Shown here: piece after piece, positions 2,481 through 54,385 of the stretch
Numbering within the stretch: position 1 is the first letter of the stretch
How the letters are laid out: each line of letters starts with the position of its first letter
Assembly: GCF_006345805.1 (NCBI RefSeq)
Contig: NC_043005.1
Coordinates: forward strand, 69,874,001-69,938,000
DNA from: Octopus sinensis
Lineage: Eukaryota
DNA length: 64,000 nt
Direction of reading: 5' to 3'
The notes under the pieces: generated by a model
What the model was told of the DNA's origin: nothing
Database searches by the model: none
What the model saw: only the letters and a program-made list of their open reading frames with translations
Made by a program: the position numbers and the translations under genes

Positions 2481-2843
2481 TCCTGTTTTATGTCTTATAC
2501 TACTTTTTTAGGCATTTATTATTAGGTCTCCAGATCTACTTCTGATTATACTTTAAAAAATACTATTCTAACGATAACTGTATAAATGGCTTGAGTGAAT
2601 GTACTTATGCTGGGAGTTATAATATTTGAACCAAGATTCAGAAATCACCGATCTGGAAAATTATTTCAGTGAATGTCATAACACGAAGTCAAGTGGTGCT
2701 TTGTAGATGTTTGTGTCCTGCATTTGATACTGAACTCTCCTTTAATGAAATATTCTAGAAATAAATGAATGATAACATTTCAAAGGATCGGCTTTCTCCT
2801 TAAGTCGCTCATATAAATTATATATATATAAGGGTGAAAAAAA

Positions 2844-3166
2844 TTAACACCAAGTGGTTTAGCGCATAAAAACTGGGACACAGTAAAAATTAATACACAC
2901 ATATAAGAGAGGGTCCACTATATGGACGCTCTTGCGCTTAAAATAGATCCGCAATGGTCTCAACCACCAAGGATTGTTCCCAAGGAGAATTAGCACAATT
3001 ATGAACATAGTTGTGGTAATTCTCCTTGGGAACAATTCTTTGTGGCTGAGACCATTGCGGATCTATTTTTAGCGCAAGAGTGTCAACATAGTGGACCCTC
3101 TCTTATATTTGTGTATTAAGATTTACTGTATCCCAGTTTTTAATGCGCTAAACCACTTGGTGTTAA
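2844..3166. repeat. Foldback with ~160-bp inverted arms between TA tracts
   Basis: TTAACACCAAGTGGTTTAGCGCAT... at 2844 mirrors ...ATGCGCTAAACCACTTGGTGTTAA ending 3166; short loop near 3005. Confidence 0.9.
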
Positions 3167-3271
3167 ATTGATGTTATTAAATTAATATCCAATCGTTTCA
3201 CCTTTATATATGTATATATATATATACATATATACATATACATACACACACATATATATATATATACATAT

Positions 3272-12788: not shown

Positions 12789-12862
<74 letters not shown>

Positions 12863-13401
12863 ATTTCAACAATTGAGGGTAAAATTAATTAATTATTAAT
12901 CAATTTCACCAAGTATTCAGTATGTAAAGGGACCATTTAAGGCGAATTCAAAATATTACATTTTATAAAGGGCTTAGTAAAATAAATTACTTTGCCACAT
13001 ACCGAACTCATTAGAAATAGCAGCCAAAAAAAATTTTTTTAGCCAAATTCTAATACTTAAAGAAAATTTCTCTCAGATAGTGCTTACTCAAAATAGCCCA
13101 CGAAGGTATGGGGGTAAAAACATTAAAAAAATCACAAGTGCAAAGGTTATTTGAGAACGTACGTTTCTAGATCAGCCAAATACAATTCGACATTTCTCTC
13201 TGTTTAATGCTTCGGTTTTCACCGATAAAATTATGGTGTTTGCTAGGTTAGCCCACGTGAGTGGAAAGGGGAGGCCAGAAATTCTTCGCTTGCATATTTT
13301 GAATTTGTTGGCACTGTTAGTCTGAACGGATCTTCGGAGGTGAAAAGTCGCCAAAAGGATATGCTCCTACTTTCAGTGTTTACAAATCCGAATTAAGAAA
13401 T

Positions 13402-13463
13402 TTTGGGCTGACTCAAGAAATGTCGAATTGTATTTGGCTGATCTAGAAACGTACGTTCTCAAA
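13402..13463 (+). ncRNA. Hammerhead motif with mutated core (CTGACTC)
   Basis: Same fold as 13969-14030 but CTGACGA changed to CTGACTC; likely inactive. Confidence 0.6.
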
Positions 13464-13968
13464 TAACCTTTGCACTTGTGATTTTTTTAATGTTTTTACC
13501 CCCATACCTTCGTGGGCTATTTTGAGTAAGCACTATCTGAGAGAAATTTTCTTTAAGTATTAGAATTTCGCTAAAAAAATTTTTTGGGGCTGCTATTTCT
13601 AATGAGTTCAGTATGTGGCAAAGTAATTTATTTTACTAAGCCCTTTATAAAATGTAATATTTTGAATTCGCCTTAAATGGTCCCTTTACATACTGAATAC
13701 TTGGTGAAATTGATTAATAATTAATTAATTTTACCCTCAATTGTTAAAATTATAATTCATTTCTCTCTGTTTAATGCTTCGGTTTTCACCGATAAAATTA
13801 TGGTGTTTGCTAGGTTAGCCCACGTGGGTGGAAGGGGGAAGGCAGAAATTCTTCGCTTGCATATTTTGAATTTCTTGGCACTGTTAGTCTGAACGGATCT
13901 TCGGAGGTGAAAAGTCGCCAAAAGGGTATGCTCCTACTTTCAGTGTTTACAAATCCGAATTAAGGAAT

Positions 13969-14030
13969 TTTGGGCTGACGAAAGAAATGTCGAATTGTAT
14001 TTGGCTGATCTAGAAACGTACGTTCTCAAA
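13969..14030 (+). ncRNA. Type I hammerhead ribozyme motif, intact core
   Basis: Stem I TTTGGG/CTCAAA, CTGACGA, stem II AGA..GTCGAAT-TGT-ATTTGGC..TCT, GAAAC-GTAC-GTT; predicted cleavage after 14024. Confidence 0.82.
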
Positions 14031-14186
14031 TAACCTTTGCACTTGTGATTTTTTTTATGTTTTTACCCCCATACCTTCGTGGGCTATTTTGAGTAAGCAC
14101 TATCTGAGAGAAATTTTCTTTAAGTATTAGAATTTGGCTAAAAAATGTTTTTTTGGCTGCTATTATATATATATATATATATATAT

Positions 14187-20738: not shown

Positions 20739-20975
20739 CATATTCTGTTGTGTCTGAGGGGATTCATTTTCTTTTTGTGCCTTATAATTTAACACATTCA
20801 CCGGTAAAATTTTCACTTCGTCCTTATTTTTATTTTCCTAAAATTGTCCTTGCTCCTTGCAACATTTTTAATGATTATTGAAACTGTTGCAAGGAATAAG
20901 TGGAAATTTTACCGGTGAGTGTGTTAAATTATAAGGCATAAAAAAAATGAATCTTCCTAGACACAACAGAATATG
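20739..20975. repeat. Foldback adjoining a TA tract
   Basis: ATATTCTGTTGTGTCT..CACCGGTAAA mirrors TTTACCGGTG..AGACACAACAGAATAT; the left arm carries a ~35-bp extra segment. Confidence 0.8.
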
Positions 20976-23527: not shown

Positions 23528-24226
23528 ATTCTAAAAAGTTAAGCGTAATAAATAAGTTCATAATTATTTCTTACTAATGTCAACAGAGACCACGTGGTGT
23601 TTTTCTTTGGTGGGGGGGACATAATGGCTGTCTTGTGCGTTGACTAGTATCGTTGGGTGTAATAGTGAAAGTGTAATATATATATAAATGTTTGCAGTTT
23701 CCTAAACACCTGTATTGTGATGGATAAACTGTGCGGTGCAAATAGCTCAATTAAACCTACACTTACATGATATACATATTTGAAATGTATACCATGTAAG
23801 TGTAGGTTTAATTGAGCTATTTGTCCAGCACGTTTATCTTAATAACGGAAGATGGCAGCGGACAAGGAAGATCCTTATCGGAAGCGGTGCCAGAAAAATA
23901 AGGTTTGAAAACCTGTACAGGTACACAGGTGAACGTGAGCAGCCAATTAAATGTTCTTCCAAAAAATATCGTTTAACATTAAAATGTCTTTCAGAATTTA
24001 ACTTTTACTTTCATAGAAATTTGGTACATTTATGTTTGAAAAAGTTTCGTTTTCGATTGTGTGTGCTAGGCAGTGTATCATCATCCCCATCCTCATCCTC
24101 ATCATCATCATCGTTTAACATCCGCCCTCCATGGTGAGGGATATCGGTAATTATGTATATGTACTCACACACCCTACATTGATTGTCTGTTTCTCTCTCT
24201 CTCTCTCCCTCTGTATATATATATAT

Positions 24227-27000
<2,774 letters not shown>

Positions 27001-27657
27001 ACGACGGGTTTCTTTCAGGTTCCGTCTGCCGAATCCGCTCACAAATCTGTGGTCGGCTCAAGGCTATAGTAGAAGACACTTGCCGTAGACTGAACCCGGA
27101 GCCATGTGGTTCATAAGCAAGCTACTTACCACACATCCACTCCTACGATTTCTTTTTACTTTTTGAGTTAAATAACGGTTTATTGTATGCTAAATAGCTT
27201 CGCTATATTGAACAAATAACACAAGGATTCATATTATCCTTACTTATATTAGCGAAGATGTAATTGCATAGAAAGTGGTTTGATCTGAGATCGTGTGCTG
27301 TAAATAGAGCGATTGCAGTGCGGGAGATATAAGTTAGACATTCAGAAACACACAAAACTGTCAACTTCACTTAAGCAATTGTAATATGGTGTCAAAACTT
27401 CCGTCTTTCGTGTCAGCGACCTATTAACTTATAAAATTGTTTGTCACGCCTGGGTATTTTCGAAAATACTGCAATTATTATCGTTTGTGATGGCTTTGAG
27501 CTCATTTTAGTTGCGATGGAATATGTCAGGCGTTATGTTTGGGGGTAGGGTCCATAGCCTGTTTTTACTACGGGATCTCAGCAATCACACTAATTGTGCC
27601 TTTGGCATTGAATTGTTAATTTTATTGGATGGATAGTGCCCAACGTAACAAAAGCAG

Positions 27658-35169: not shown

Positions 35170-36415
35170 ATCTTTCCTAGGTGATCCATTTGCTGTGAAC
35201 AACTGCTAAATTGAGGGCTGGGCATGCCGTGTTTGATGATGCATAGACATCCCCTCATACTGCGACATCTACGGCGCTCCATAGACGACAGTGAACATGT
35301 GTTGTTGCTGTTTGCGCGGCGCACTTTTCTACAGCTCGTCGTGTTTGGGAGAACTGCAGTCGTGGATCAAACAAAGGCCGAGGTTAGGCGAATGGCACCA
35401 CAAGTCTCAAGTGACTCTGCCGTCCGGGACCAACCTTATGCGATTTCAATTTAACAAACGTGTTCTATAGAGGATTAGTGGAGGGGAGGTGCGACGACTT
35501 TCAAGAAGTAGAATCTGGGTGTCAACGAGGAACACCCAACCAGCCTGTTCAGGACAACTTTTGGGCCGGTACCTATGGACAATCACCAGAAATACCTGAC
35601 CTGGCAGCTATCAAGAATCAATGCCCATTTCGGGATAAGCTATACAAGCAGGCTTCGAGACACACCAGACCGACTTGCCTGAGACGCGTTCAAGGTGACG
35701 AAACCGTTCTGCACGCACTCGTGCAGTGTCCAACCATTTCGGATATGTGGGCTTATGCCGAACGGATGCTGTTACGTGTGGGACGAGTTCGCTTGTCGGC
35801 CGAGTCTATGGTGAAAATTACTCCGTCACAATCTCTTAACCGGGACGGCAAGGCAGTCTTCATTGTACCGGTGGCCATGGTTAAATAATGTGAGTGGTGG
35901 AATCGAACGAAGGTTTTAAAGACAAACACTTACCTCTCTGGCCAATCGCTAATCAACTTGTTTAAGTACCACTTGAAAAGGAATGTAATAATAGAGAGAA
36001 GTCTTGTCTCGTGAAACATTCAATAAAGGCTGGGTGAATGTAGCAAACATGATACGTACGAATGAGAAAACCACTTTGAGCATGATCTTGTAAATGGTAA
36101 AGGACGAGATTAAGAGAGTTAGGTAGTAATTTGCCCTCATGTGTTTCCTCCTCCCTGCCTGACGTTACCGTGCTCTTTTTCGCAGGCTTTTCTTTCTAAG
36201 GATAAACCTAATTTGTCTCTTTTTTTACATTAATGATTTTTCTGTGATACACGATCCCTTTTCCTTCCTTTGTTTTTGTTTTACACGATCCTTTTTGATC
36301 GGAAATTTATTTCCGCTTCCTTTTCTTTGACTATTTTCAAAAAGCTCTACATTTTATTTTTGTTCCCTCTGTGTTCGACTCTGTGTAGCTAATAAAACTA
36401 CTTATTTATCTATCT
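35170..36415 (+). mobile_element. 5'-truncated Tx1/L1-like LINE: zinc-binding C-terminus and 3' UTR
   Basis: ORF 35460-35888 has PTCLRRVQGDETVLHALVQCP, a decayed CxxC..H..C zf-RVT motif; AATAAA then TATC at the 3' end. Confidence 0.8.
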
Positions 36416-36951: not shown

Positions 36952-37081
36952 TATTGGTGAATTGAAGAAATGGAGCTGAACGCAGATTGAACAGAAATCG
37001 TTTTATTTCACTATGAAATAAAAATGAAATAAAACGATTTCTGTTCATCTGCGTTCAGCTCCATTTCTTCAATCACCAATA
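36952..37081. repeat. Foldback with ~58-bp arms between TA tracts
   Basis: TTGAAGAAATGGAGCTGAACGCAGAT mirrors ATCTGCGTTCAGCTCCATTTCTTCAA. Confidence 0.9.
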
Positions 37082-41028: not shown

Positions 41029-41352
41029 CCGACCTCAGTCCCACTGCGTGGCACCTTGATTAAGTATCTTCTACTATAGCCTCGGGCCGACCAAAGCCTT
41101 CCAAGTGTTAACTCAAACCTTTTGAAATAATTATAGTTATAATTTATATACTTCTTATTTAATACAAGACTATTTATATTATGGATGTATCTGAACTGTG
41201 ATTTGTATGGTCTAATTTTTCCTTTTATATTCTAATTTATAATCGCTGAAATCGAATTTGTAAATATCTTTAAGGTTTTAGACATTTCTCATATTAAGTG
41301 CACTTATTTGAAATCCAGTATATTTTATTTGCAAAAGAATGTATTTGATATA

Positions 41353-41401
<49 letters not shown>

Positions 41402-41608
41402 TATATATATAATTTTACATTGTATAAAAGGGCTTAGTAAAATAAATTACTTTGCCACATACTGAACTCATTAGAAATAGCAGCCAAAAAAACATTTTTT
41501 AGCCATTTCTAATACTTAAAGAAAATTTCTCTCAGATAGTGCTTACTCAAAATAACCCACGAAGGTATGGGGGTAAAAAACATTAAAAATTCACAAGTGC
41601 AAAGATTA

Positions 41609-41670
41609 TTTGAGAACGTACGTTTCTAGATCAGCCAAATACAATTCGATATTTCTTTCGTCAGCCCAAA
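41609..41670 (-). ncRNA. Type I hammerhead motif, intact core, in the inverted arm
   Basis: Reverse complement of TTTGGG-CTGACGA..GAAAC-GTAC-GTT-CTCAAA. Confidence 0.8.
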
Positions 41671-42116
41671 ATTTCATAATTCGGATTTGGAAACACTGAA
41701 AGTAGGAGCATACCTTTTTGGCGACTTTTCACCTCAGAAGAACCGTTCAAACTAACAGTGCCAACAAATTCAAAATATGCAAGCGAAGCCCTTTTATACT
41801 ATGTAATATTTTGAATTCGCCTTAAATGGTCCCTTTACATACTGAATACTTGGTGAAATTGATTAATAGCTAATTAATCTTAACCTCAATTGTTGAAATT
41901 ATAATTCATTTCTCTCTGTTTAATGCCTCGGTTTCCACCGATAAAATATGGTGTTTACTAGTCTGACCCACGTGGGTGGAAGGGGGAGAGCAGGAATTCT
42001 TCGCTTGCATAATTTGAATTTGTTGGCACTGTTAGTTTAAACGGTTCTTCTGAGGTGAAAAGTCGCCAAAAAGGTATGCTCCTACTTTCAGTGTTTCCAA
42101 ATCCGATTTACGAAAT

Positions 42117-42178
42117 TTTGGGCTGACAAGAGAAGTGTCGAATTGTATTTTGCTGATCTTGAAACGTAAGTTCTCAAA
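42117..42178 (+). ncRNA. Hammerhead motif, degenerate
   Basis: Core CTGACAA and loop GTAA instead of CTGACGA and GTAC. Confidence 0.55.
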
Positions 42179-42682
42179 TAATCTTTGCACTTTTGAATTT
42201 TTAATGTTTTTACCCCCATAACTTCGTGGGTTATTTTGGGTAAGCACTATCTGAGAGAAATTTTCTTTAAGTATTAGAAATGGCTAAAAAATCTTTTTTT
42301 GGCTGCTATTTCTAATGAGTTCAGTATGTGGCAAAGTAATTTATTTTACTAAGCCCTTTTATACAATGTAGTATTCTGAATTCGCCTTAAATGGTCCCTT
42401 TACATACTGAATACTTGGTGAAATTGATTAATAGCTAATTTATTTTTACCCTCAATTGTTGAAACTATAATTCATTTCTCTCTGTTTAATGCCTCGGTTT
42501 TCACCGATAAAATATGGTGTTTACTAATCTGACCCACGTGGGTGGAAGGGGGAGAGCAGGAATTCTTCGCTTGCATATTTTGAATTTGTTGGCACTGTTA
42601 GTTTGAACGGTTCTTCTGAGGTGAAAAGTCGCCAAAAAGGTATGCTCCTACTTTCAGTGTTTCCAAATCCGAATTAAGAAAT

Positions 42683-42743
42683 TTTGGGCTGACGAAAGAA
42701 ATGTCGAATTGTATTTGGGTATCTAGAAACGTACGTTCTCAAA
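42683..42743 (+). ncRNA. Type I hammerhead motif, intact core
   Basis: CTGACGA 42689-42695, GAAAC-GTAC-GTT 42726-42737, stem I TTTGGG/CTCAAA. Confidence 0.8.
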
Positions 42744-43246
42744 TAATCTTTGCACTTGGGAATTTTTAATGTTTTTACCCCCATACCTTCGTGGGTTAGT
42801 TTGAGTAAGCACTATCTGAGAGAAATTTTCTTTAAGTATTAGAAATGGCTAAAAAATGTTTTTTTGGCTGCTATTTCTAATGAGTTCAGTATGTGGCAAA
42901 GTAATTTATTTTACTAAGCCCTTTTATACAATGTAATATTTTGAATTCGCCTTAAATGGTCCCTTTACATACTGAATACTTGGTGAAATTGATTAATAGC
43001 TAATTAATTTTACCCTCAATTGTTGAAATTATAATTCATTTCTCTCTGTTTAATGCCTCGGTTTTCACCGATAAAATATGGTGTTTACTAGTCTGACCCA
43101 CGTGGGTGGAAGGGGGAGAGCAGGAATTCTTCGCTTGCATATTTTGAATTTGTTGGCACTGTTAGTTTGAACATTTCTTCTGAGGTGAAAAGTCGCCAAA
43201 AAGGTATGCTCCTACTTTCAGTGTTTCCAAATCCGAATTAAGAAAT

Positions 43247-43308
43247 TTTGGGCTGACGAAAGAAATGTCGAATCGTATTTGGCTGATCTAGAAACGTACG
43301 TTCTCAAA
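43247..43308 (+). ncRNA. Type I hammerhead motif, intact core
   Basis: CTGACGA 43253-43259, GAAAC-GTAC-GTT 43291-43302, stem I TTTGGG/CTCAAA. Confidence 0.82.
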
Positions 43309-43971
43309 TAATCTTTGCACTTGTGAATTTTTAATGTTTTTACCCCCATACCTTCGTGGGTTATTTTGAGTAAGCACTATCTGAGAGAAATTTTCTTTAA
43401 GTATTAGAAATGGCTAAAAACCTTTTTTTGGCTGCTATTTCTAATGAGTTCAGTATGTGGCAAAGTAATTTATTTTACTAAGCCCTTTTAAACAATGTAA
43501 TATTTTGAATTCGCCTTACATGGTCCCTTTACATACTGAATACTTGGTGAAATTGATTAATAGCTAATTAATTTTACCCTCAATTGTTGAAATTATAATT
43601 CATTTCTCTCTGTTTAATGCCTCGGTTTTCACCGATAAAATATGGTGTTTACTAGTCTGACCCACGTGGGTGGAAGGGGGAGGGCAGGAATTCTTCACTT
43701 GCATATATATATATATATATATATGCAATTTATAATAGAATTTTTAAGTAATATTTCACAAGTCATCTCTTTACATTTTCTTTAAATTCTAAAGATTCAT
43801 AATGAATTAAATTGGGGATTCCATAATATGTATATATTTCCCCATCCTAAAATTGATATATGCTTATTACCCTTAAGCTTTCTGTAAGAACAAAAATTGT
43901 ATTTAGCAAGCCGTAACATCTTTGCACTTCTTCGAAAACTTTCCCTTAACGAATCTTAAATTAACGAGTGA

Positions 43972-44175
43972 GGCGGCGAGCTGACAGAATTGTTAGCACC
44001 CTGAGTAACATACATGGCAGTACATTTCCCGCCTTTACGTTCTAAACCCAAATTCAACCAAGATCGACTTTGCTTTCATTCTTCGAAGTCGATAAAATTA
44101 ATACCAGTACTGGAGTAGATGTAATCTACTTCACCCCTCCTCCGAAATTTGCTGGCCTTGTGCTAAAATTCGAAG
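43972..44175 (+). mobile_element. SINE family D (Nin-domain-like)
   Basis: GGCGGCGAGCTGACAGAATTGTTAGCAC head; TCGACTTTGCTTTCATTCTTCGAAGTCGATAAAATTAATACCAG block. Confidence 0.65.
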
Positions 44176-50677: not shown

Positions 50678-52757
50678 TAATATATGTATATGTGTGTGTC
50701 TATATATATATATATATACATGTAAAGATATGCGTGTATGCGTATGCATATATACATATAAATATATTCATGCATATGTTGTGTGTGCGTGCGTGGGTTT
50801 TTGTATGTGTGTGGTGTATCTCAAAGACAATCAAAAGCTATGTTAGGAACAATAATAATGCCATCTTTTATAACTCTAACGCAAACAGAACATAGAGTCT
50901 GTAAGTTGTAGAGTTACGTGTATTCTTCGAAAGAAAACCTCACGTACATGAGAGTTCGAAACCTATGCCAGTGTGAATGATATACATTCATAAATCTTGC
51001 ATGATAAATATAACAATCTCTATTCGAATATATTCTAGTACGTCAATATTTCAATTTTATAAACCAGAATAATCACAGGTAGGTAGTTTTGTACTTGTTA
51101 CTGATTTAAAGTATAATCATAAAAGCTTAAATTTTCAGGACTTAAAAAACTGATAGAAGTTCTGCAACTAAAAATGTCTTCTTGAGGGAAGAAAATCTAG
51201 CACTTCTCAAAATGAAAGATCATATCAAAATGAAAAATCCTAACAAATGAAAACTTCTGACAAAAGGAAAAATCCTACCAAAACGAATACAAAAATGTGA
51301 GATATGTATGCAAAAGTTGAGCTCTCGTTGAAAGCAAAAACAGCTTTATCTAACAAAAATGTTATTGCTTATGCACAAATATTTCAAAAGACTGTTTAAT
51401 CCCTAGTGTAGTTGGAGATATAAAGACAAAAAGTTATAAGAAATAATCGCAAACTTTCCACGTTCCACATGTCAACGCATTAGGCAACAACCTTTATAAA
51501 ATAAGAATGACATTAAGAAGATAATCTTAACAAAACAATGTGATTGATTAACATGAAGATGTTGATAACATTACAATGTTAGGAAGATAACCATGCGCAA
51601 ACAATATGTTTTATATGAAAATGTGTCGAGCACAAAAAATATTAGGAAAATATGCTTTTAAATCGTCTAAAGTGAAAGTGTATTTCGAAAAAGATTCTCT
51701 TAGAATAAAATGCTTCAATGAAATATTTTGCTAAAAACATGCTACAAATAAAGTATTACGGAAAGCCTTGATAAAATTATGTACATATATTTTCGTAAGG
51801 GTCCCCAGGTTTAATATATCGGGATAGAAGAAATGGAAAATACTTGAAGTTAATCTATCACCTAATTGTATAACGGAAGGTAAATCTTTTCAAATGCGTT
51901 TTCTATACGCTCGTCTTGGCTCCATTTTGATTGTATCTGCAATTTCATACTCTTTCATTTTATTCTTGAAGTCTAATTCAAGATCACACCTTATTTGACG
52001 CGTATAATAAAATAAGATATATAATAACGGCGACGACAATGATGACGACGGCGGTGATAACGATGAGGAGGAGGCGGATGATGATGATGATCATGATCAT
52101 GAACGTGGTATGATAGCATAAATATATAAAATTAAAAAACTTTAAGTACATAAGTTAAAAGGATAAAACATGTAAAACGCGAAAACATGAAAGCGTTGCA
52201 GAGATGGATGACTTCCAAGAACTATTCAAATGCATTTATTACTGCTTTGATTGTTTTCTGTTAAATTTGAACTACATGACACTAATCTGAGGCAAGGAAG
52301 AAGTTGTTTTACATAGAAAATCAAAGAAAAAAAAATTAAATATAGTGCAATTTACCTTATTGATGTTCCCTTCTTGGTCACATATCTGTTAATTTTGTCT
52401 GTTTCAACATCAACCATATCTTTGTGATCATTACTCGTTGGGTTACTGTTTTTTCAAAGCCTGGTTTCGTTTTGCAATATTTTAATTATTCTAACGTTAA
52501 TTTATAACAATGACGGCAAACACACTACCCGAATCAGATAATAAAACAATATTAATATAAATAGCAATAATATTTCCCAAAATTATGGGAGTAACAGATG
52601 CATAAGCATAATAACCAGCATTTGCTGTTAGAGAAAAAAAGGGGAATTAACAGGAACTATGTATCACATACAAATATACAGATGATATTATCACTGATGT
52701 AAGCATAACAGTTTTTTCCTTTTATACATACATATATATATACATATATATATATAT

Positions 52758-53604
52758 ATCATATAATTAAGGGCTAAAGAGGGTTATTCTAAAGCCAATA
52801 CACTGATCTATCCACTTATAATCCGCTTGCTACACGAGAATTGAAACTGAAAACGGGCAACTAACCTTTAGAAAATTTAAATTTCGTTATCTCTATATTG
52901 AATCAATTTCGGAATTAATCTTATAAAAAGATATATTCTTTCTTCAGTAGAGCTTTCGATGGGATATAATAAAATACTCACGTATGATCATGGAAAAAGC
53001 ACAAGCTAAAAACATAACTACACTTGAGTACATCACTTATACCTAAAAATAAAAATTCTTTGGTCAGCCTCAGAAACAACGTCTTGACCTTTCGCCGCTA
53101 CAAATTGTAATGGTTACCGGTCCTCCCGTAGCAAGCAGCGAGTTTACTACTAACAATATAGGATGAAGTCCCTTTCTCCACAGAAAAGGAATCCATCCAG
53201 AATTTTTATTTTTAGGTATAAGTGATGTACTCAAGTGTAGTTATGTTTTTAGCTTCTGCTTTTTCCATGATCATATGTGAGTATTTTATTTATATCCCAT
53301 CGAAAGCTCTACTGAAGAAAGAATATATCTTTTTATAAGATTAATTCCGAAATTGATTCAATATAGGGATAACGAAATTTAAATTTTCTAAAGGTTAGTT
53401 GCCCGTTTTCAGTTTCAATTCTCCTGTAGCAAGCGGATTATAAGTGGATAAATCAGTGTATTGGCTTTAGAATAACCCTCTTTAGCCCTTAATTATATGA
53501 TGTTTATACTTCAACCGTAACGGTTTTTTTAAATATACTGCCCACGCTTCCTGATGGATTCCTTTTCTGTAGAGAAAGGGACTTCATCCTATATTGTTAG
53601 TAGT
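52758..53604. mobile_element. Foldback of a ~490-bp circularly permuted unit in (TA)n
   Basis: 52758-53059 mirrors 53199-53500, and 53146-53197 mirrors 53553-53604. Confidence 0.85.
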
Positions 53605-53633
53605 AGTAGTATATATATATATATAATATATAT

Positions 53634-53685
<52 letters not shown>

Positions 53686-53688
53686 TAC

Positions 53689-54267
53689 GCGAGAAAGAAG
53701 CAACAAGAATGGATAGGTTTTTAGTACAATCGTTTCATACAAGGACAGGCTTTATTAAAAGTTGCAAAAATTACAGCATATAAACGTGTCCCGTACTCAT
53801 CAGCTAAAATACATGTGAGTTCTCTAGACATCCTAGTGGTTGAGGCTATACTCATGAAGTAATGTAGATAATTAAGTAACATAAACAGATTTTCAAAGTT
53901 CATTAAAGTTCTTTAAAGATGATGTGCAGTCTTATCACAGAATTTTAAAAAAGTTTTAATAGCATCCCAGAGAAGGTGACCTAATCCATAGTGCTATTAA
54001 AACTTTTTTAAAATTCTGTGATAAGACTGTACATCATCTTTAAAGAACTTTAATGAACTTTGGAAATCTGTTTATGTTACTTAATTATCTACATTACTTC
54101 ATGAGTATAGCCTCAACCACTAGGATGTCTAGAGAACTCACATGTATTTTAGCTGATGAATACGGGACACGTTTATATGCTGTAATTTTTGCAACTTTTA
54201 ATAAAGCCTGTCCTTGTATGAAACGATTGTACTAAAAACCTATCCATTCTTGTTGCTTCTTTCTCGC
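53689..54267. repeat. Near-perfect foldback with ~276-bp arms, TA-flanked
   Basis: 53689-53964 mirrors 53992-54267 with a 27-bp loop; this explains the twin 60-aa ORFs. Confidence 0.95.
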
Positions 54268-54385
54268 TTATAATCACCCCACATTACTGTATTGTTAAAA
54301 CAGTATAGTTTTTTTTGGGTGCATCTAAGTTAGGTACCATATTCAAGTAAATTCATTTAAATTAACTTGAATCTTTATTGCTTTT

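Follow-up and report, generated by a model that had tools for sequence, protein, structure and literature searches.

Metazoan non-LTR retrozymes are non-coding tandem units, each with one type I hammerhead ribozyme (HHR), which are further characterized by low GC, a self-paired predicted monomer, co-occurrence with Penelope-like elements (PLEs) and a proposed circular template (PMC7229834; bioRxiv 10.64898/2026.07.22.740005). For PLEs themselves, Craig et al. 2021 (PMC8557442) give an inverted 5'-truncated copy, a tail that is often at one end only and a bias toward microsatellites. Frangieh et al. 2024 (PMC11167929) describe two internal RT start sites that bound the tail, nicking and extension of both target strands and a predicted dimer: In their in vitro system HHR mutants inserted normally, and the start sites were alike on both strands. 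Published accounts already cover the retrozyme class and its hypothetical circle, the link to PLEs and the one-sided tail (PMC7229834, PMC4209133, PMC8557442, bioRxiv 10.64898/2026.07.22.740005), and the enzyme mobilizing retrozymes, the circle as template and the origin of the inverted copy and one-sided tail of PLEs are stated as open (bioRxiv preprint, PMC8557442, PMC7229834).

The 565-nt repeat of Octopus sinensis analyzed here is likely a new family of this known class, that is, a non-LTR retrozyme and non-autonomous PLE. It has all the retrozyme features listed above, and its HHR resembles those of axolotl in the 1-bp stem III, the palindromic tetraloop and the mismatch at the base of stem II. 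Its length lies above the 170–400 nt given by Cervera and de la Pena 2020 (PMC7229834) and within the 51–972 nt given by Li, Clavereau and Pollet 2026 (bioRxiv 10.64898/2026.07.22.740005). Unlike the described retrozymes it has a GUU triplet and is known here from sequence alone, and the available text of PMC7229834 and of the preprint holds no description for retrozymes of a strict (TA)n target, head-to-head arms or paired ends of two classes, termed A and B below. With EN+ PLEs of the Neptune/Nematis type the family shares partial tandems, an inverted 5'-truncated copy, a tail at one end, a microsatellite target and an HHR upstream of the 3' ends (PMC8557442, PMC11167929, PMC4209133); it differs from them by the lack of an ORF, a tail of ~95 nt instead of 30–40 and an HHR ~200–300 nt upstream of the ends, and no pLTR homology to a coding PLE was found in the 50 GIY-YIG stretches compared. 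Non-autonomous Chlamys elements such as MRC1 are likewise non-coding PLE dependants with multicopy head-to-tail insertions (PMC8557442), but their 3' end is similar to that of the autonomous partner, and their clade lacks the canonical HHR. Our literature search found no publication on the 565-nt family or on paired A/B retrozyme ends; Repbase and most subscription papers lay outside this search, and supplements may list such families. The main text of PMC13282606 mentions neither hammerhead nor retrozyme.

The window, a stretch of 64,000 nucleotides of contig NC_043005.1, holds two insertions of the family (Table 1). At locus B, the 3.4 tandem 565-nt units, the inverted arm and the four HHR motifs, three of them core-intact, that had been noticed in the first-pass annotation were all confirmed. 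The full units (41815–42379, 42380–42944 and 42945–43508) show 95–97% identity to unit 2, and twelve differences found in a single piece fall in unit 1. The direct arm has an atypical 3' end at an internal ATAT and overlaps the inverted arm by 3 nt. The three intact motifs (unit 2, unit 3, inverted arm) retain CUGANGA...GAAAC-GUAC-GUU. A second insertion of the same family, locus A, was also correctly recognized. The variants that had been quoted as specific to each locus are indeed present (one unit of locus B has one mismatch to the quoted string), but they are subfamily markers and not locus-private: Loci A and B differ in 18 of the 389 columns in which all pieces of each locus agree, with 5 of these 18 differences falling in an unstable homopolymer loop, whereas locus A and the insertion L072 differ in 1 of 397 columns. 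GC is 0.34 over 42001–44000, and the longest stop-free stretch of the unit comprises 52 codons in any frame, which makes the unit non-coding.

Table 1. Features of the two insertions of the 565-nt family, in window coordinates.
Feature	Position	Strand	Remark
Locus B, inverted arm, 0.67 unit	41411..41788	-	outer 3' end is site A and adjoins (TA)n
Locus B, direct arm	41786..43706	+	29-nt stub, three full units and 198-nt partial unit
HHR-like motif, locus B inverted arm, type I	41609..41670	-	core intact
HHR-like motif, locus B unit 1	42117..42178	+	core broken: G8 changed/lost, palindromic loop changed
HHR-like motif, locus B unit 2	42683..42743	+	intact core with weakened stem II; cleavage predicted after 42737
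HHR-like motif, locus B unit 3	43247..43308	+	intact core; cleavage predicted after 43302
Predicted 565-nt monomer between successive cleavage sites	42738..43302	+	highly self-paired predicted fold
Conserved stem enclosing site A	43449..43540	+	43449-43458 pairs with 43531-43540; site A at ~43490-43504
~95-nt 'tail', site A to site B	43504..43598	+	site B at ~43589-43598; read through at locus B
(TA)n target left of locus B	41348..41411	.	sequence
(TA)n target right of locus B	43705..43724	.	sequence
Locus A, whole insertion	12859..14164		layout as in locus B, also within (TA)n
Locus A, inverted arm	12859..13200	-	outer 3' end is site B and adjoins (TA)n
Locus A, direct arm, 1.7 units	13191..14164	+	stops 60 nt before site A
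Locus A, HHR motifs	13402-13463 (broken); 13969-14030 (intact)		within direct arm

Beyond the window, exact matches in the genome number 3,528 for a 21-mer of the unit, 3,025 for an 18-mer of the HHR and 4,147 for a third short pattern, with none for the reversed controls. The family is therefore not a product of chance and amounts to at least several thousand units: at least 3,500 in the 2.7-Gb genome, in several subfamilies whose monomers are up to ~20% apart. The element is real, young-looking and abundant. In four sequencing runs presumed to be RNA, contigs cover 23–27 of 30 bins, mostly with other subfamilies; since such contigs reveal neither strand, ends, level nor circularity, they carry no weight for or against a circle.

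End mapping was performed on 94 insertions with 159 arms, the window loci included. Forty-one of these insertions were the best matches to the full unit, a choice biased toward long copies and the subfamily of the window; the other 53, drawn consecutively along contig C1 from among the first 100 hits to a 21-mer close to site B, are biased toward copies holding that site. Excluded from the counts were L153, which duplicates L151 in inverted orientation, the second of the tandem copies at L064 and at L127, an internal hit of L160 and the small separate insertions at L141 and L167; L157 and L168 were each divided into two. None of the 94 insertions has LTR-type flanks.

With the HHR strand taken as sense, the 3' ends of the arms are confined to two places: site A at unit position ~545–563 and site B at ~81–90 of the next unit, which gives a spacing of ~95 nt. 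Within class windows of 543–564 (A) and 78–112 (B), which are wider than the sites because the alignments run on into TA, we found 150 of the 159 3' ends (A 69, B 81), and 154/159 outer ends adjoin (TA)4+. While 29/94 insertions are one-armed, 65/94 have two arms, and all 65 of these are head-to-head with their 3' ends outward. Their ends form 55 AB pairs, one BB pair and no AA pair, with one atypical end in the other nine; under independent choice of ends, an AB pairing of 55/56 has a p of about 1e-15. The tail of ~95 nt consequently stands on one end only. The ends are paired and not first-come, because either arm can be the longer one and short arms pass A to reach B when the partner arm ends at A (e.g., L103). 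TA microhomology alone provides no explanation for the two sites, since the TATA that the main subfamily has at position 425 does not serve as an end. Across the genome, matches number 1,176 for one form of the junction from B to TA and 1,887 for read-through at B. Variable endpoints, in which the first-pass annotation had seen the signature of rolling-circle copying, with fixed endpoints counting against it, did not hold up: The 3' ends are fixed, and fixed start sites are compatible with a circle. The differing start and end points that it had reported are real for loci A and B, but both loci belong to the nine two-armed insertions with an atypical outer end. Moreover, it had missed that a Penelope-like integration is indicated by the combination of inverted arm, TA target and two fixed ends. 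The features of such an integration are found here: partial tandems with an inverted 5'-truncated copy, a one-sided tail and a microsatellite or AT-rich target.

At their inner (5') side the arms are variably truncated: Arm lengths range from 33 to 2,432 nt, and the inner ends vary widely and are joined mostly by an overlap of 1–5 nt or a short filler. At the predicted cleavage site inner ends show a mild excess without formal test (10/159 in the 20-nt bin 360–379, compared to 5 and 5 in the bins beside it and 13 and 11 in the bins of 400–439). A pile-up of 5' ends there, as expected of a cut linear template, was set aside, the excess being only mild. A fold-back origin of the inverted arm was rejected as main route: Near-symmetric junctions occur in 14/65 cases versus 9.8 expected (p 0.10). 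A general enrichment of CCCTT before TA runs was not found (30/1,165 versus 21 in the control stretch), and target-site duplications are unreadable within (TA)n.

Several further insertions lie in the same window. Another HHR-bearing family occupies 14–923, with head-to-head arms in (TA)n, a ~115-nt tail on one arm and ends preceded by GCCCTT and ACCCTT, like those of the 565-nt family. Unrelated inverted insertions are located at 2820–3200, 20739–20975, 23723–23838, 36952–37081, 52751–53605 and 53685–54271; several of them sit at TA tracts and have one tail-extended arm, and the short end of 52751–53605 carries GCCCTT. A 1.38-kb tandem duplication with 99.8% identity and TA tracts at its bounds (24255–27001) is either recent or an assembly artifact. 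Finally, a 157-codon open frame (35415–35888) contains a Cys/His pattern, which we take to resemble the C-terminal zinc finger of LINE proteins.

For the question of the template, the relationship among units is informative. Units differ by 1.3% within the same arm and by 1.0% between opposite arms of a locus, compared to 9.7% between loci, and many of the differences are one-base indels resembling read errors. Clustering by locus, a check that had been proposed, was run: 51 of 75 full units have their nearest neighbor in their own locus, with 4 ties and 20 units for which this is not the case. Among 70 rare shared alleles, 51 are present in every piece covering the site, 39 of these across both arms, and 47 loci yield 38 distinct homogenized haplotypes. 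The remaining 19/70 alleles are restricted to some pieces: Eight lie in blocks of adjacent units (3 loci), five in one whole arm, three at the same rank of both arms, and three are mixed. Such partial alleles speak against a single clean rolling event, because none would be expected from a circle copied a single time; so do the 24 of 75 units without a strictly nearest neighbor in their own locus. Of the 159 arms, 116 run across one or more predicted cleavage sites and 40 across two or more; 176 of the 193 HHR junctions are of normal length, and 10 of 12 longer ones have the extra base in the loop and not at the cut. The clustering and the rare variants, most of which occur in both arms, indicate that the arrays arose mainly by copying of a single monomer lineage during insertion. 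Together with the crossed sites, this supports the original proposal that an enzyme passing through the ribozyme site copied each array from one template lineage. The homogeneity fits a circular template, short of proving one. As a separate observation, three consecutive units of L177 (3331–5002) have an altered HHR core, in contrast to the inner unit and the other arm, where the core is normal.

We then consider the RNA itself. At motif level each unit contains a type I hammerhead with conserved core, stem I and palindromic stem III: In a set of one unit per locus, the core positions are identical in 67–70 of 70 loci, and variation is seen at N7 (C43/U23/A3/G1), in the length of loop II and on one side of the pairs of stems I and II. 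The core is also conserved across subfamilies 12–20% apart. Stem III consists of 1 bp plus a palindromic loop, an arrangement described as needing a dimer (PMC4209133, PMC7229834). The motif is atypical in its GUU triplet and in an A.A, U.U or G.U at 10.1–11.1, where G10.1-C11.1 is usual, and its activity may be low because of this triplet and the noncanonical base of stem II. Rfam gave no hits at gathering scores in the window and no hammerhead at E<=10 over 42900–43550, and when the motif is folded by itself it does not outperform shuffled sequences (z 0.08 to 1.5); the minimum-energy folds of units 2 and 3 (-7.4 and -10 kcal/mol) do not correspond to the full catalytic fold. The circular fold of the cleavage-to-cleavage monomer gives z values of -6.5, -5.9 and -2.9 for three subfamilies (25 shuffles each), and the antisense strand folds well too (z -5.1, -3.6, -3.1). 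In the consensus fold of 12 monomers, 16 of 153 pairs show two-sided changes, a level reached in 0 of 500 shuffles and compared to 1–5 in slid controls, with the count drawing on related sequences and on a structure derived from those same sequences. Conservation along the unit is highest around A and B; this region includes the stem enclosing site A, which has one compensatory pair (U-A/C-G). Conservation of the HHR core, the covarying fold and the circular-fold z values thus argue for selection at the RNA level.

The 565-nt unit has no RT + GIY-YIG ORF and is not an autonomous PLE; candidate partners are present in the same genome. GIY-YIG matches number at least 147 among the matches listed, of 150 scored, several of them in open frames of 775–883 aa; the ORFs of 775–781 aa match RT + GIY-YIG. 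In two ORFs tested by Pfam, the RT scored just under and the GIY-YIG over the cut-off. A CX4CXXC precedes the nuclease in these two ORFs, as given for Neptune and Nematis (PMC8557442). PLE ORFs with the same end pattern as the 565-nt family are thus present: The RT + GIY-YIG family of L157 and L186 lies in (TA)n with inverted arms, the majority of the 43 matches to its 3' end extend as far as the long end, and in three inverted pairs a long end is combined with a short one, in two of them 30 nt apart. The two families have only a short ACCCT-type end motif in common. No PLE sharing the 565-nt unit was found in 50 GIY-YIG stretches, some of them overlapping, out of 147 listed matches and 5,029 candidates, nor was a unit attached to a PLE ORF in the unit-bearing loci, and the partner is for this reason inferred and not named. 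PLE fragments in L046/L101, L157 and L186 were rejected as joined partner, being separate insertions.

The coding PLE families of L157 (4090–8142), L186, L084, L082 and L089 lie in (TA)n and have 3' repeats with HHR-like motifs that combine a U-for-C core start with a palindromic stem III; this core start resembles the U3-A8 variant of PMC4209133. In L084 (674–2110) and L088 (5003–6439), a 479-aa open frame lies upstream of and overlaps the RT/GIY-YIG frame. This frame, which has no Pfam match, is unusual for a single-ORF element.

On this basis we consider it probable, with room for doubt, that the family is a non-autonomous retrozyme copied by a Penelope-like RT/GIY-YIG protein from a probably circular monomer RNA. 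For transcription, cleavage, circularization, enzyme identity and double priming we infer the following course: The array would be transcribed, and neighboring HHRs would pair via the palindromic stem III and cut out the monomer, which a host ligase would close into a circle. The PLE protein, likely a dimer, would bind the conserved structure around A and B and nick both strands of a (TA)n tract. One nicked end would then prime cDNA synthesis at A and the other at B, and each cDNA would travel around the template over 0.1 to 4 or more units and halt at a variable point. Finally, microhomology of a few bases or filler would link the 3' ends of the two cDNAs, yielding a head-to-head insertion that bears the 95-nt tail on one side only.

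It is possible, if on balance unlikely, that the same PLE-driven two-site integration instead employs an uncleaved linear multimeric array transcript, which would render the circle unneeded and the HHR weak or dispensable. In keeping with such a template, RNA left unprocessed serves as the main substrate for PAc in vitro (PMC11167929), only 1/9 predicted Xenopus retrozyme dimers was cleaved in vitro (bioRxiv 10.64898/2026.07.22.740005), the HHR of our family is atypical, and opposite-arm pieces of equal 3'-end rank are closer to each other (1.0% vs 1.7%) in 19/26 loci. The rank signal is gone, however, with rare shared alleles only (3 same-rank vs 3 mixed) and is therefore probably due to noisy short pieces near the junctions. 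Moreover, internal starts on a linear multimer can only shorten arrays, yet 38 of 47 loci have their own homogenized haplotype, which calls for repeated passage through one unit as a circle would provide; conservation of the HHR core among the diverged subfamilies also disfavors a dispensable ribozyme. Given PLE-type integration, we hold a circle to be the likely template and an uncleaved multimer to be the lesser possibility.

Alternatively, single units might have been inserted first and multiplied later by unequal crossover or slippage in satellite-type growth, a model proposed in bioRxiv 10.64898/2026.07.22.740005 and favored by the eight rare alleles in adjacent-unit blocks (L072, L133, L177) and by whole insertions duplicated in tandem (L064, L126/L127). 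As the main cause this is improbable: The clustering is by locus, 39 rare alleles are shared across the two arms, and opposite arms resemble each other as closely as do units of the same arm (1.0% vs 1.3%); unequal crossover neither makes nor homogenizes an inverted arm, and the arrays are short and dispersed. DNA transposons commonly have inverted ends and a TA target, and one might accordingly think of a TA-preferring DNA-level element, either foldback/MITE-like with long inverted repeats or Helitron-like with rolling-circle replication. We regard this as very improbable, since the ends differ systematically (A vs B), the arms are of highly unequal length with variable inner truncation, nearly a third of the insertions (29/94) are one-armed, and the G-U-tolerant covariation and the HHR core point to RNA. 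Least credible of all is that inverted arms and arrays are long-read fold-back or assembly artifacts: Palindromes and TA tracts are hard to assemble, and many one-base indels between units look like read errors, but the flanks outside the TA tracts are not mirrored, and the arms are not identical in sequence and terminate at distinct fixed sites.

Returning to the PLE-copied circular retrozyme, a more specific version of this reading is tentative and, in our view, rather less likely to be right than wrong: An asymmetric PLE dimer might make every complete insertion by priming one circular ribozyme RNA twice, with one subunit always at site A, the other at site B and both rolling in parallel, and a shared A/B fold might let a guild of unrelated HHR circles use the enzyme and even join in one event. 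A chimeric insertion that would fit such joining is L193 (628–6678; C1, about 18220100–18226200), in which 9.2 near-identical 598-nt units of a sister family are joined to two arms of the 565-nt family without TA spacer. The sister family has the A/B fold in common, retains the site A stem with a further exchange and carries an HHR-like motif whose triplet is GUC and whose core has one additional base. The chimera suggests that one enzyme handles both RNAs.

If true, the asymmetric dimer would provide a genomic proof of principle for rolling-circle, double-primed retrotransposition and would explain the PLE tail and the inverted copy together. The 565-nt family carries unusually clear genomic marks of integration, which makes it useful for testing how PLEs integrate, and it yields a sharp prediction: A and B starts should be anti-correlated per molecule. 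With thousands of young copies, an end pairing of 55/56, a covarying fold around the start sites and a genome that also holds apparently intact PLE ORFs, it therefore offers a ready substrate for an in vitro PLE assay.
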